Origin: an uncultured Muriicola sp.
GTDB lineage: Bacteria > Bacteroidota > Bacteroidia > Flavobacteriales > Flavobacteriaceae
DNA: 64,000 bases
Assembly (NCBI GenBank): GCA_947259855.1
Contig: CAMYNV010000008.1
Coordinates: 63,688 to 127,687, forward strand
Reading direction: 5' to 3'
Shown here one piece after another: positions 2,246 to 47,768 of this stretch. A program made the translations under genes and the position numbers. Within the stretch, counting starts at the first letter, position 1. Each line of letters begins with the position of its first letter. The notes beneath the pieces are model-generated. The model ran no database searches. It was not told the DNA's origin and saw only the letters and a program-made list of their open reading frames with translations.

Positions 2246-2389
2246 ATGAACACTAAAAGAATCTTATTTGGCTTGGCAACAGTTCTTGTTTTAATGGCAG
2301 CGGCCTGTACTCCCAATACAGCGGAGGACGATCAGGTCTACGAACAAGGCGTAGATAAATCTAAAGTTATTATTCATAAATCGGATTAG
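2246..2389 (+). CDS. Small putative lipoprotein (47 aa), absent from the ORF track
   Basis: ATG ORF MNTKRILFGLATVLVLMAAACTPNTAEDDQVYEQGVDKSKVIIHKSD. Signal peptide plus lipobox-like LMAAAC. Followed by a strong hairpin terminator at 2431..2460. Confidence 0.4.
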   Translation: MNTKRILFGLATVLVLMAAACTPNTAEDDQVYEQGVDKSKVIIHKSD

Positions 2390-2430: not shown

Positions 2431-2460
2431 AAAGGGCAACCAATAAATTGCCCTTTTTTA
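2431..2460 (+). terminator. Rho-independent terminator
   Basis: AAAGGGCAA-ccaataaa-TTGCCCTTT followed by TTTTA. Confidence 0.6.
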
Positions 2461-2493
2461 CGTTACAATCGTATATAAAAATGTACTGTTGTA

Positions 2494-3144
2494 ATGGCAA
2501 TAAACATTCTGAAGAAAAAACAAGCGAGGACAAGATTTTTTATTGAGTCTATTGCATTAATACTTATAGTATTATCTCCTTTTATCTTTAAGATACATCA
2601 ATACTTGCCTCATACGCCCGAAGCGACTTTTAGTCTTTTTGGCTACGAGATTGATCGCAATGGTTTTGCAGATGTGAGCACTTATGCATGGTTTTTATTA
2701 AATAAATTAATTCCTCTATACTTATTGACCATTTGGTTTTTTACCTGTAAGCACTGGTGGTATCATATTATTCTGATTCCGTTATGTATGTATGCCTTCC
2801 AAATTTTTGAAGTTATCTATTCGGAAGATCTATATGTGGATACGGAAAATGTTTTTTGGTTGTTACCCATATGTATGGTAATAATTCCCTTTGTATATTT
2901 AATTAGGGTAAAGCTTTATGACAAATATGTTCATGGGATTGACCTGGAAGCCATGGATGCGGAACTACAGTCGTACCGGGAAAAAGAACAGCTGAAACAA
3001 GAAAAGATTCAATCTTACAACACAGATACAGATAGCGAAGAAGAAAATGCAGATCTCTCCAAAGAGGCATCGAAAAGAACTTTATCAAAACTCTTTCATC
3101 AATTTCAGCATTCCTTAAAAAACCTCTTTAATTTTATGCTGTAA
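2494..3144 (+). CDS. Membrane protein, single-module paralog of the 288..1523 protein
   Basis: 216 aa. Residues 54-100 (DRNGFADVSTYAWFLLNKLIPLYLLTIWFFTCKHWWYHIILIPLCMY) align without gaps to both halves of the 411-aa protein. Charged C-terminal tail. Confidence 0.65.
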   Translation: MAINILKKKQARTRFFIESIALILIVLSPFIFKIHQYLPHTPEATFSLFGYEIDRNGFADVSTYAWFLLNKLIPLYLLTIWFFTCKHWWYHIILIPLCMYAFQIFEVIYSEDLYVDTENVFWLLPICMVIIPFVYLIRVKLYDKYVHGIDLEAMDAELQSYREKEQLKQEKIQSYNTDTDSEEENADLSKEASKRTLSKLFHQFQHSLKNLFNFML

Positions 3145-44913: not shown

Positions 44914-45576
44914 ATGACCAAATCTGAAAAAATTGATTTTACCATCCGTACACTCAATCAGCTATATCCTGAAATTCCTGTTCCCCTGGAACATAAGGAC
45001 CCTTATACACTGCTGATCGCAGTACTTCTATCTGCCCAAAGTACGGATGTCCGTGTCAATAAAATTACGCCCCTCTTATTCAAAAAAGCAGATAATCCAT
45101 ATGATATGGTCAAATTATCGGTTGAGGAAATTCGGGAAATTATAAAGCCGGTAGGACTTTCTCCTATGAAATCAAAAGGGATTTACGGACTTTCAAAAAT
45201 TTTAATTGATAAACATAAGGGTAAAGTCCCACAGGACATACAACTTTTGGAAGAATTGCCAAGCGTAGGACATAAAACAGCCAGTGTGGTAATTTCGCAA
45301 GCCTTCGGGATTCCCGCTTTTCCGGTAGATACCCATATCCATAGATTGATGTATCGATGGGGATTTTCGAGTGGAAAAAATGTAGTTCAAACAGAAAAGG
45401 ATGCAAAACGACTTTTCCCAAAGGAATTATGGAACGATCTGCATCTTCAGATTATCTGGTACGGAAGAGAATACTCACCTGCAAGAGGTTGGGATCTGGA
45501 AAAAGATCTTATAACAAAGACGATTGGAAGGAAAAAAGTGCTGCAAGAATATTACAAATTAAAAAAGGCCCGCTAA
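44914..45576 (+). CDS. nth: Endonuclease III-like HhH-GPD DNA glycosylase lacking all cysteines
   Basis: LPSVGHKTASVVISQAFGIPAFPVDTHIHRL (HhH, catalytic Lys and Asp context). No Cys anywhere in the 220 aa. Confidence 0.8.
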   Translation: MTKSEKIDFTIRTLNQLYPEIPVPLEHKDPYTLLIAVLLSAQSTDVRVNKITPLLFKKADNPYDMVKLSVEEIREIIKPVGLSPMKSKGIYGLSKILIDKHKGKVPQDIQLLEELPSVGHKTASVVISQAFGIPAFPVDTHIHRLMYRWGFSSGKNVVQTEKDAKRLFPKELWNDLHLQIIWYGREYSPARGWDLEKDLITKTIGRKKVLQEYYKLKKAR

Positions 45577-45592
45577 TGCGAGCCTTTGTTTG
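45561..45592. terminator. Bidirectional terminator overlapping the nth stop codon
   Basis: AAAGGCCCGC-taat-GCGAGCCTTT (one mismatch), flanked by an A6 run and TTTGTTTGTT. Confidence 0.6.
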
Positions 45593-45736
45593 TTAATTCA
45601 AAATCGTTTCGAATCTGAATTGCCTGTGTTTTGTTATCCTCAGTGCCTTCGAATATTCTAACAAAAAGTGAATGGTTTCTGGGCTTACCTGGGCAAGTTT
45701 ACAAGCATTTTTTTTCTTTGAGTAAATTTTTTCCAT
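45593..45736 (-). CDS. Unannotated 47-aa protein downstream of sigma factor copy 1
   Basis: ATG...TAA, MEKIYSKKKNACKLAQVSPETIHFLLEYSKALRITKHRQFRFETILN. Starts 68 nt after the sigma stop. Paralog at 46731..46874 has identical length and spacing. Confidence 0.55.
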   Translation of the reverse strand: MEKIYSKKKNACKLAQVSPETIHFLLEYSKALRITKHRQFRFETILN

Positions 45737-45804
45737 ATGATTGCTGTATCGTTACGATAAGATAACGCAGGCAATATGGAATTATTGTACTTCTAAATGT
45801 AAAC

Positions 45805-46389
45805 CTATGAATTTGTCAATACGATATTATGGCGTTCAATTATTTTTCGAAGATTAATCAATGCATACCGCATTCTTCCCAGTGCAGTGTTAATACTTAC
45901 ACCTGTATTCTCAGAAATTTCCTTGAAGCTCATATCCTTATAAATTCGCATCAATAAGACTTCTTTCTGGTCATCTGGAAGTTCTTCGATCAATAATCCC
46001 AGATCACTGTCTATCTGATCTTTAATAAGTTGTTTTTCTGCATTTAATTTGTCGTCTCCGATCACAGAAAAGATATTAAAGTCTTCATTGCCCTCAAATT
46101 TTGGCATGCGCTTATTTTTTCTAAAATGATCGATGATCAAGTTGTGTGCAATACGCATTACCCAGGGAAGAAATTTCCCTTCTTCACTATAATTCCCCTT
46201 TTTAAGAGTCTTGATAACTTTAATAAAAGTGTCTTGAAAGATATCCTCTGTGATATCCCTGTCCAGAACTTTGGAATAAATAAAACTACTTATTCGTTGG
46301 TTGTGCCTGTTAATGAGGATTTCCAATGCTTTTTCATCCCCGCTGATGTAGTCCGTTACTAGTAGTGAGTCGTCCTTTTGAAGTTTCAT
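45805..46389 (-). CDS. ECF-type sigma-70 family RNA polymerase sigma factor, copy 1
   Basis: 194 aa. Region 2 (EDIFQDTFIKVI...PWVMRIAHNLIIDHFRK) and region 4 HTH (MSFKEISENTGVSINTALGRMRYALINLRK). Confidence 0.85.
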   Translation of the reverse strand: MKLQKDDSLLVTDYISGDEKALEILINRHNQRISSFIYSKVLDRDITEDIFQDTFIKVIKTLKKGNYSEEGKFLPWVMRIAHNLIIDHFRKNKRMPKFEGNEDFNIFSVIGDDKLNAEKQLIKDQIDSDLGLLIEELPDDQKEVLLMRIYKDMSFKEISENTGVSINTALGRMRYALINLRKIIERHNIVLTNS

Positions 46390-46644
46390 AGATAGTCTTT
46401 TGGTTTGCGAATGAACTTTTTAAGTATTGCTTAAAAACTCCGGTTATTAGATTTATTTGAGATACTTGTTTTTTGAATTACATTTTAAAAGTACCTAAAG
46501 ACCATGCTGCAGGAAAAAGTATGTTGTAAAACGTCCAAATATTGATGTGAACATGCACTTTCGTAAATCTGACGCAAAAAGGAAGGCTGAAAATAGGAAG
46601 GAAAAGGAAGTGATCTACAGTTTATAAATGGGTATTAAAAAATT

Positions 46645-46680
46645 AGGCATTACTTCATGGAAAGGTCCATAGTAATGCCT
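46645..46680 (-). terminator. Rho-independent terminator of sigma unit 2
   Basis: AGGCATTACT / AGTAATGCCT perfect 10-bp stem (inner ATGGA/TCCAT), followed on the minus strand by AATTTTTT. Confidence 0.65.
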
Positions 46681-46730
46681 GATTAATTTTATAAAGATTA
46701 TTTAGATCTGCTCTATCGCTTTAGGGATCC

Positions 46731-46874
46731 CTAGTTTAAGTTACTTTCAATGGTCATCCCCTTTATTTTTTGTATGTGGAGTGCTTTGGAGTAATTCAGT
46801 ATAAATTGAACCGTCTGTGGTTTAGCCTTTATAAGCTTACATTGCTTTTGATACTTCGGGTAAATCTGTTCCAT
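46731..46874 (-). CDS. Unannotated 47-aa protein downstream of sigma factor copy 2
   Basis: ATG...TAG, MEQIYPKYQKQCKLIKAKPQTVQFILNYSKALHIQKIKGMTIESNLN. Starts 68 nt after the sigma stop. 22/47 identical to the 45593..45736 peptide. Confidence 0.55.
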   Translation of the reverse strand: MEQIYPKYQKQCKLIKAKPQTVQFILNYSKALHIQKIKGMTIESNLN

Positions 46875-46942
46875 AATATTCTAGTTATTTCTAAATAACG
46901 CCAGAATTAAAGGAACCACAGTATTACTCGACCTAAAACCGA

Positions 46943-47524
46943 TTAATTCGTTAAAACAATATTATTCTTTTCAATTATCTTTCTGAGGTTAATAAGCGCA
47001 TAGCGCATTCTTCCCAGTGCCGTATTAATGCTTACTTCAGTGTTTTCAGCAATTTCATTAAAGCTCATATCCTGATAGATCCTCATTTTTAATACTTCTT
47101 TTTGGTCTTTAGGAAGCTTTTCTATCAATATTTCCAGGTCATTATCTATTTGTTCTTTTATTAATTGCTTTTCAACATTGAGTTTGTCATCTGTCAGAAC
47201 AGAAAAAATATTGAATTCCTTATTGCCTTCGTACTTGGGCATTCGTTTATTTTTGCGGAAGTGATCTATTATAAGGTTATGTGCAATACGCATTACCCAG
47301 GGTAAGAACTTCCCTTCTTCATTATAGGAGCCTCTTTTTAAAGTCCTGATAACCTTAATAAAGGTATCCTGGAAAATATCTTCCGTTATTGCGCTGTCTA
47401 ATACCTTGGAATAGATATAACTGCTAAGACGTTGATTGTGTTTGTTGATAAGGATTTCAATGGCTCGTTCATCGCCATTTATATAATTACTTACGAGGAT
47501 AGCGTCGTCAATCTGTGTTTGCAT
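46943..47524 (-). CDS. ECF-type sigma-70 family RNA polymerase sigma factor, copy 2
   Basis: ATG at 47524 (MQTQIDDAILV...) aligns with the copy 1 start (MKLQKDDSLLV...). The track start at 47545 is TTG. About 80% identical to copy 1. Confidence 0.85.
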   Translation of the reverse strand: MQTQIDDAILVSNYINGDERAIEILINKHNQRLSSYIYSKVLDSAITEDIFQDTFIKVIRTLKRGSYNEEGKFLPWVMRIAHNLIIDHFRKNKRMPKYEGNKEFNIFSVLTDDKLNVEKQLIKEQIDNDLEILIEKLPKDQKEVLKMRIYQDMSFNEIAENTEVSINTALGRMRYALINLRKIIEKNNIVLTN

Positions 47525-47768
47525 ACAATTACTTTTTTGGTTCAATTTAGGGGTCGCTCTGTACCGAGAGACATCAACTAATATGGTTCGTATTCAAAAA
47601 AGTAATTTTCGCTTTATAGGCTGTTTTGTTTAAGATTAACAATTCAAAGATAGAAAAAATATCAACTTTTAATAGACTCATCCCCTATTTAACATAGTTG
47701 AGTGTAGAAATACTTTGAGCTGGTTATTGATTTATACATATTGTATCTTTGCAAACTTACGTAGACCC

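Follow-up and report, generated by a model that had tools for sequence, protein, structure and literature searches.

A 64,000-nucleotide stretch of DNA from an uncultured Muriicola sp. (GenBank assembly GCA_947259855.1, contig CAMYNV010000008.1, positions 63,688 to 127,687 of the forward strand; hereafter the window) carries two neighbouring genes for extracytoplasmic function (ECF) sigma factors, each followed by a short open reading frame (ORF) of 47 codons. Sigma factors of the ECF type are the main stress-signalling device of the Bacteroidota, and those resembling AlgU, RpoE or SigW are normally encoded with an anti-sigma gene immediately downstream; to our knowledge, almost no ECF sigma factor has been studied in marine flavobacteria. 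At this locus the sigma factor, which no recognisable anti-sigma accompanies, shows exceptional conservation, with about 91% identity between genera. The question raised by the locus is whether the small ORF, which occupies the position of an anti-sigma gene, is itself a gene, and if so whether its product acts on the sigma factor encoded before it. The analysis presented here suggests that the locus is an ancient, duplicated operon composed of an orphan ECF sigma gene and the gene of a 47-aa protein, that this operon contains a second promoter, of ECF type, and that the regulon extends to at least one more gene. A role of the small protein as a sigma regulator is plausible.

The two sigma genes, sigma1 and sigma2 (Table 1), encode proteins that are identical at 155 of 193 residues (80%), in agreement with the value of about 80% obtained by hand alignment in the original prediction, and both contain the three motifs quoted there. 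Each scored above the Pfam cut-offs for Sigma70_r2 and r4_2 and above that of TIGR02937 (88 and 86 bits, cut-off 42.9), and each consists of regions 2 and 4 only, in about 190 aa, as expected of group 4 (ECF) sigma-70 factors. Under the curated NCBIfam equivalog cut-offs, no named ECF equivalog (PRK12513, SigW, SigZ and others) was reached, the best match being PRK12513 (156 bits versus a cut-off of 206) and the others falling far under theirs; the nearest solved structures were AlgU, RpoE and SigW. We favour the ATG at 47524 as the start of sigma2, because the conserved upstream alignment supports it over the TTG at 47545, to which the version of the ORF lister reaches. The genes bcp and nth lie on one side of the locus and uvrA on the other, and with only these as neighbours, no canonical anti-sigma gene was found near the sigma genes.

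We assembled a sigma-first set of loci by searching with the sigma proteins and retaining one genome per species, which yielded 80 loci and, with the window, 81 loci containing 149 sigma genes. These came from Muriicola (96% identity), Eudoraea, Maribacter, Zobellia, Arenibacter, Euzebyella, Croceitalea, Sediminicola and other genera, and fell into two classes, represented by sigma1 (class A) and sigma2 (class B). The small ORF was intact after all 149 sigma genes in the 81 genomes, well in excess of chance, so that the stops and frameshifts that the original prediction had named as evidence against a gene were not encountered, and when lengths were counted after picking the conserved ATG, 146 of the 149 copies had exactly 47 codons. 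The ratio of nonsynonymous to synonymous substitution rates (dN/dS; pairwise Nei-Gojobori), a check proposed in that prediction, was about 0.27 in class A and 0.26 in class B, indicating purifying selection. Among codon positions, the third showed the highest column entropy and the second the lowest, and conserved residues extended as far as the C-terminal end in the consensus MEKIYs....c.L.k..PETi.FLLnYSKSL.i.....f.FE..LN-stop. The frame remained intact down to peptide identities of about 40%. On this sequence evidence, the small ORF represents a real gene that encodes a protein and is subject to purifying selection; we refer to the two window copies as pep1 and pep2.

The two peptides share 22 of 47 residues, the number first reported, with a BLASTP E value of 8e-15, and mean peptide identity was 54% within class A, 56% within class B and 47% between the classes. 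A cysteine described earlier as conserved (position 12) proved to be variable, being replaced by F, G, N, T, S, I or Y in relatives. As had been surmised, the peptide belongs to no named family: no Pfam or NCBIfam family passed for the window copies or for any of 77 members, searches of PDB sequences gave no match, and no paper turned up when the literature was searched in full text for the peptide motif strings. From 5.8 billion proteins, a profile search recovered 865 family members, all labelled 'hypothetical' and none with a Pfam domain, and 235 representatives at 50% identity emerged when 1.84 billion cluster representatives were searched exhaustively with HMMER; lengths ranged from 32 to 67 aa among the 150 HMMER matches listed. 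All members from named organisms belonged to the Flavobacteriaceae (Cellulophaga, Maribacter, Salegentibacter, Aquimarina, Mesonia, Psychroflexus and Patiriisocius), and the peptide thus represents a previously undescribed protein family, as defined by these searches, across this bacterial family. Viral contigs contained no peptide homolog, which argues against a phage link.

Both window peptides are basic, with a net charge of +6 counted from the sequence. An AlphaFold model of pep1 built with a 49-sequence alignment (predicted local distance difference test score, pLDDT, 81.6) has a flexible N-terminus, a helix at residues 19-31 and a beta hairpin at residues 33-44; a shallow 12-sequence alignment reproduced the helix, with low confidence (pLDDT 64). 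Foldseek found no match in the PDB to the better model. The product is accordingly predicted to be a soluble, basic mini-protein with one helix and one hairpin.

The linkage between peptide and sigma factor was evaluated in the opposite direction with a peptide-first set, obtained by scanning metagenomes with the seed FLLNYSK[AS]L, which gave 80 loci with 98 peptide ORFs (84 of 47 aa, the remainder of 48-50 aa). Upstream sequence of 700 nt or more was available for 77 copies, and 70 of these lay 51-120 nt behind a sigma homolog on the same strand. The expectation that peptide homologs would lie downstream of this sigma subfamily was thus borne out in 149 of 149 sigma-first and 70 of 77 peptide-first cases, but not without exception, as stand-alone and sigma-less copies exist. 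The gap between sigma stop codon and peptide ATG is 68 nt in both window units, as the original prediction had emphasized; this identity is, however, a coincidence within a constrained range, since the spacer measured predominantly 67-76 nt, was within 63-80 nt in most of the 149 units, reached 104-115 nt in a few, and spanned 51-120 nt across the whole peptide family. The long spacers of 104-115 nt, as against about 70 nt, are found in Maribacter-like class B units (L027, L029, L030, L037, L041, L042, L069, L074 and L080).

The distribution of the units also indicates how the tandem arrangement arose. Every class A sigma gene is followed by a peptide gene (82/82). An arrangement of uvrA, sigma, peptide and nth-bcp with a single unit occurs in seven distant lineages, and in single-unit genera the sigma factor is 89-92% identical to sigma1; by this distribution class A, the unit adjoining nth, is the ancestral one. 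Muriicola, Eudoraea, Maribacter, Zobellia, Arenibacter and Euzebyella are among the genera that carry both units. Because class A is ancestral and both units are common to many genera, we conclude that the tandem duplication seen in the window is ancient and not a recent event. Since then, the class B sigma factor has been the faster evolving, with a mean within-class identity of 77%, compared with 91% in class A (90-96% identity of sigma1 across genera). A search for residues specific to either class found essentially none, class B being merely more relaxed. The peptide has co-diverged with the sigma factor: in 75 class A units, the partial Mantel correlation between peptide and sigma given Nth was r = 0.43 (p ~0.0005), whereas that between peptide and Nth controlling for sigma was r = 0.15.

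The spacer between sigma1 and pep1 contains a two-box motif, CAATA-N15-CGTT. In the fetched loci (568 kb in all) the exact motif was counted 93 times, and in 92 of these cases it stood immediately ahead of a peptide gene, its distance from the ATG being 23-42 nt. It was present in 80 of the 82 class A units and in each of the nine distant lineages that were examined, stand-alone copies L084 and L086 among them. The 15 nucleotides between the boxes are not conserved among distant lineages, and the motif is therefore a promoter signature and not a continuous conserved element. Every metagenomic peptide gene (98 of 98) had a CGTT box 19-46 nt ahead of its start codon, compared with a background of 7.5%, and this box is shared by class A, class B and stand-alone copies. 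Classic ECF promoters have the layout AAC-N16-CGT, and CAATA-N15-CGTT can be read as (C)AAT-N16-CGT, that is, in this classic layout. A 'CGT' -10 box has been treated as diagnostic of ECF promoters (PMC9723704). With two boxes at fixed spacing, a CGT-type -10 box and occurrence at more than one locus, the spacer motif is a putative ECF-type promoter.

An unlinked locus carries the same signature. Only two exact copies of CAATA-N15-CGTT are present in the 64-kb window, both just upstream of a start codon, and the second lies 33 nt upstream of a gene for a 216-aa membrane protein (2494..3144) for which no Pfam family was found. Orthologs of this protein (991 proteins) occur in Muriicola, Eudoraea, Robiginitalea and Spongiimicrobium. 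Upstream regions of orthologs were fetched from three other genomes (L175, L176 and L177); the exact motif preceded the gene in Robiginitalea and Muriicola jejuensis, each time with a different N15, and Eudoraea had TCATA-N15-CGTT, the motif lying 27-41 nt upstream of the gene across genomes. The membrane-protein gene is therefore a likely candidate for a second member of the sigma regulon, and the presence of the motif at two or more unlinked loci defines a small regulon. As the motif is shared with stand-alone peptide copies and with this unlinked gene, the peptide gene is itself predicted to be an ECF sigma target, most simply of the sigma factor encoded just upstream.

Table 1. Features of the duplicated sigma-peptide locus and of the second motif locus, with positions in the window
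Feature	Position	Strand	Description
Housekeeping-type -7 box of sigma2	47645..47652	-	TATCTTTG; nearly invariant TATaTTTG in 66 class B upstream regions
sigma2 5' untranslated region with long-range helix	47528..47606	-	ATTACTTTTTT (47596-47606) pairs with AAAAAAGTAAT (47528-47538)
sigma2	46943..47524	-	193 aa, paralogous ECF sigma factor (class B)
Class B spacer element	46884..46900	-	CGTT box (46897-46900) and inverted repeat GTTAT-N6-ATAAC; CAATA absent
pep2	46731..46874	-	47-aa protein gene, class B; 47 aa in 65/67 class B units
Intrinsic terminator, unit B	46645..46680	-	36-nt hairpin and T-run; RNAfold -18.5 kcal/mol
Housekeeping-type -7 box of sigma1	46486..46493	-	TACTTTTA; conserved in alignment of 82 class A upstream regions
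sigma1	45805..46389	-	194 aa, RpoE/AlgU-like ECF sigma factor; ancestral copy (class A)
-35-like box, sigma1-pep1 spacer	45783..45787	-	CAATA; from exact-motif counts
-10-like box, sigma1-pep1 spacer	45764..45767	-	CGTT (ECF 'CGT' type); 31 nt before pep1 ATG
Inverted repeat overlapping -10 box	45750..45767	-	CGTTA-N8-TAACG; from stem statistics over units
pep1	45593..45736	-	47-aa protein gene, class A; intact in 82/82 class A units
Intrinsic terminator, unit A	45564..45587	-	Terminator scan
Membrane-protein gene and motif	2441..3144	+	CAATA-N15-CGTT (2441-2464); 216-aa multi-pass membrane protein (2494..3144)

The coordinates and sequences originally given for the two sigma genes and the two 47-aa ORFs all checked out, and both hairpin terminators proposed at the ends of the units were recovered. 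A terminator follows the peptide gene in 139 of the 149 units (78/82 in class A, 61/67 in class B), and none was found within the sigma-peptide spacer in any of the 149; this contrast indicates that sigma and peptide genes are co-transcribed. The sigma genes themselves are preceded by boxes that resemble the housekeeping promoter consensus of the Bacteroidetes, TAnnTTTG (PMC9723704), and long conserved 5' untranslated regions (5'UTRs) follow both of these -7 boxes (about 95 nt in the case of sigma1). No ECF-like motif was found in the aligned upstream regions of the sigma genes; a scan for sigma-70 consensus promoters is uninformative in Bacteroidota. Each unit thus appears to be its own transcription unit, with a promoter before the sigma gene and a terminator after the peptide gene, as the original prediction had supposed from the terminators. 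The promoter and terminator anatomy, the putative internal ECF-type promoter and the candidate second target go beyond that first description of the locus.

In order to account for these features, we propose the following order of events. A housekeeping (sigma-A type) promoter with a long conserved 5'UTR would drive expression of the orphan RpoE-like ECF sigma gene, and read-through across the 68-nt spacer into the 47-codon gene, stopping at the terminator, would provide a basal supply of peptide. The ECF promoter in the spacer would be read by the sigma factor encoded just upstream, so that sigma activity would boost peptide synthesis, and the peptide would in turn bind the sigma factor and damp its activity, a negative feedback loop exerted by a minimal soluble anti-sigma. 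We infer binding from the position of the gene in the place of an anti-sigma, the absence of a canonical anti-sigma nearby, the retention of the peptide behind both sigma paralogs and the co-divergence of the two proteins. A mini anti-sigma, or another modulator of the sigma factor, is the best reading of the data, and we would give it nearly an even chance. The more specific proposal, that the peptide founds a new structural class of minimal soluble anti-sigma (a helix and a hairpin) acting by direct negative feedback on a partner-less ECF sigma factor, with the duplication having produced two insulated pairs, is possible but, as it stands, rather doubtful.

The locus resembles rpoE-rseA, algU-mucA and sigW-rsiW in that an RpoE/AlgU-like sigma gene is directly followed, on the same strand and in the same predicted transcript, by the gene of a potential partner. 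It differs from these canonical ECF operons in that the partner has 47 aa and neither a transmembrane segment nor an anti-sigma domain, in that the sigma gene is driven by a housekeeping-type promoter rather than by its own sigma factor, and in that the ECF-type promoter precedes the partner only. Nor did the peptide resemble the established anti-sigma classes. It is too small for class I (RseA/RsiW/ChrR type, with a helical domain of about 80-90 aa and usually a transmembrane segment), having 47 aa in total with one helix and a hairpin. The HxxxCxxC motif of zinc anti-sigma (ZAS) proteins is absent from both window peptides, as first noted, and their sole cysteine, at position 12, is replaced in many relatives; this single, non-conserved cysteine also sets them apart from the CsfB/Gin type with its paired zinc-binding cysteines. 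Compared with the NepR type, which has a two-helix fold and PhyR in the locus, the peptide has no Pfam match and one predicted helix, and its neighbours are uvrA, nth and bcp.

Better parallels are found at the level of function. CsfB/Gin, a 48-aa anti-sigma-G/E of Bacillus that binds zinc through paired cysteines, illustrates that a protein of about this size can be a specific anti-sigma, and FlgM, the anti-sigma-28, is transcribed by the very sigma factor that it inhibits, which is the feedback logic of an anti-sigma made by its own target. Both act on non-ECF sigma factors and lack sequence similarity to the peptide, and CsfB differs further in the zinc-binding cysteines that the peptide does not have. 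NepR, a very small soluble anti-sigma of EcfG in Alphaproteobacteria that is encoded beside the sigma gene, acts through partner switching with PhyR (PMC4551977, PMC8999054). The peptide, for which a regulatory role is a proposal, is likewise a very small soluble protein encoded adjoining an ECF sigma factor; in contrast to NepR, there is no PhyR-like gene near the locus, no sequence or Pfam similarity, another predicted topology and another phylum. CfrX of Pseudomonas aeruginosa, an 84-aa protein with a SigX-dependent promoter, is a suspected but unproven regulator of SigX (PMC7641640, PMC8999054), and shares with the peptide the state of a small hypothetical soluble protein beside an ECF sigma gene with a promoter dependent (here by prediction) on that sigma factor. 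It is, however, encoded upstream of its sigma gene, in a cfrX-cmpX unit with a mechanosensitive channel and oprF, and differs in size and family. NepR, CfrX, CsfB/Gin and FlgM are the closest functional analogues, none of them homologous to the peptide, and as precedents for small sigma-controlled regulators they lend support to the feedback reading. A SigX/CfrX-type locus was considered and rejected, as no cmpX or oprF homolog is nearby, leaving a functional analogy only. Kinship with the EcfO/Reo system of Bacteroides was likewise rejected, since Reo, a large protein, extends across both membranes (PMC13114119).

Several observations weigh against a sigma-binding peptide. Residue covariation between peptide and sigma factor, scored as mutual information with average product correction, did not rise above a peptide-versus-Nth control, although the effective number of sequences (~17) was too small for this comparison to be informative. 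The peptide lacks the defining features of known anti-sigma classes, with no Pfam match, one predicted helix and no zinc motif. The same promoter before the membrane-protein gene indicates that the sigma factor has ordinary effector targets, of which the peptide could be another. A stand-alone peptide subfamily (P0195 and P0222) exists with no sigma gene beside it, and in three metagenomic variants (L112/113, L116/119 and L123/124) the peptide gene is intact after only the last ~25 nt of a sigma gene, as if the sigma gene had disappeared or been copied in part only, with the peptide remaining conserved; such copies suggest that the peptide can function away from a cis-encoded sigma factor. Finally, class B peptide genes lack the -35 box, the exact motif being found in 0 of 67 class B units while CGTT is kept in 65 of 67, although the region 4.2 helix of the sigma factor is invariant.

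In the main rival explanation, the peptide is an ordinary effector of the regulon, active in a stress-related function of its own and without contact with the sigma factor, its adjacency reflecting the fact that local ECF targets often adjoin the sigma gene. An ECF-type promoter of its own makes the peptide gene a regulon member, which fits a feedback regulator and an effector equally, and this promoter is the same in form as that of the unlinked membrane-protein gene and is kept by the stand-alone copies. Copies of the peptide outlast the loss of the neighbouring sigma gene, no feature of any anti-sigma class is present, and the predicted fold is a self-contained mini-domain rather than a disordered binding peptide. 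An effector would not, however, be expected to show a cis linkage of ~91-100%, whereas the other target is unlinked, nor to have persisted downstream of both sigma paralogs from an ancient duplication onwards, to co-diverge with the sigma factor beyond the level of a neighbouring gene, and to fill the exact anti-sigma slot of an otherwise partner-less RpoE-like sigma factor. That the peptide is kept behind both paralogs, is a predicted ECF target and co-diverges, while the other target is unlinked, suggests that the link is regulatory and not incidental, and we consider a pure effector unlikely, though a serious contender.

Linkage, co-divergence and the putative sigma-dependent promoter speak equally for a positive partner of the sigma factor, such as a co-factor, a stabiliser or a helper that binds RNA polymerase, which would create positive feedback; a basic peptide of net charge +6 would suit contact with nucleic acid or with an acidic surface. 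The data are compatible with either sign of the effect. Small positive partners are much rarer than inhibitors beside ECF sigma factors, and we regard this reading as improbable.

A further alternative arises from the inverted repeat in the spacer. A short repeat, GTTAT-N6-ATAAC, overlaps the CGTT box, with a stem of at least 5 bp in 81% of units as compared with 35% of shuffles and with compensatory variants that include GTTTT/AAAAC and GTTTC/GAAAC; it may be an RNA hairpin or an operator. If the latter, the peptide might be a tiny dimeric DNA-binding autoregulator that acts on this repeat over its own -10 box, as its small size and basic charge would allow, and one family member has a very weak ribbon-helix-helix Pfam match (E = 0.06). 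The stand-alone copy L084 has no comparable repeat (3 bp only), however, and L086 has an unrelated 5-bp stem (TTGTA/TGCAA), although both retain the promoter boxes; the predicted helix-then-hairpin matches no known DNA-binding mini-fold, and the repeat could equally form an RNA hairpin in the read-through transcript. We therefore hold autoregulation by DNA binding to be very improbable. That the ORFs are not genes at all, but chance frames, or frames in which translation has a role only in cis, with conservation that stems from an RNA element, would suit the fact that most genome annotations miss them or label them hypothetical, but it is excluded, as far as sequence evidence goes, by the constancy of 47 codons, the low dN/dS with its excess of third-position variation, conservation to the extreme C-terminus, frames that stay intact at high divergence, and an Rfam scan of the locus that returned sub-threshold noise only.

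The locus now stands as a defined, testable module: an unannotated protein family that numbers in the hundreds, a promoter motif specified precisely, a candidate second target gene and a feedback hypothesis. If the peptide does bind the sigma factor, it would represent a new, very small class of anti-sigma, and the two units would be naturally duplicated, possibly orthogonal sigma/anti-sigma pairs usable as genetic parts. Should the peptide prove to be an effector and nothing more, the promoter motif would still give access to an uncharacterised flavobacterial regulon. The case also illustrates that a gene conserved throughout this bacterial family is systematically overlooked, or left without a name, by annotation pipelines.

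The leaders of the two sigma genes differ from one another. That of sigma1 (46390-46530, minus strand) contains conserved blocks (..AATAAC.. and ..TTAACC-AAAAAA..) ahead of the ATG. In the sigma2 leader, the long-range helix listed in Table 1 is the sole helix of the RNAalifold consensus and shows an A-to-T / T-to-A compensatory change in L055, L057 and L063. This helix may sequester an A-rich stretch directly ahead of the start codon, and may thus be a candidate translational control element.

A subgroup dominated by lake metagenomes (L128, L136, L140, L142, L143, L160, L167 and L169) has sigma factors 66-70% identical to sigma1 and peptides that end in ..AN. In this freshwater subgroup TACTA replaces CAATA, at the same N15 distance from CGTT, and the region 4.2 helix of the sigma factor is unchanged; a comparison of the -35 variants (CAATA versus TACTA) with this helix gave no signal of co-variation, the helix being invariant. 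The stand-alone peptides of L084 (3001-3156), L085 and L086, with no sigma gene adjoining, end in ..DYLLN. The peptide gene of L084 is divergent from a thioesterase gene and lies upstream of genes for a 488-aa unknown protein and a FadL-like outer-membrane protein. The loci with sigma remnants (L112, L113, L116, L119, L123 and L124) carry class-B-like peptides in a region of low coding density.

At the second motif locus, a different 47-aa ORF (2246-2389, plus strand) with a lipoprotein-like signal (MNTKRILFGLATVLVLMAAAC...) lies between tsaE and the membrane-protein gene. In Eudoraea (L175, 364-498), a 44-aa gene has been called at the position matching this ORF.

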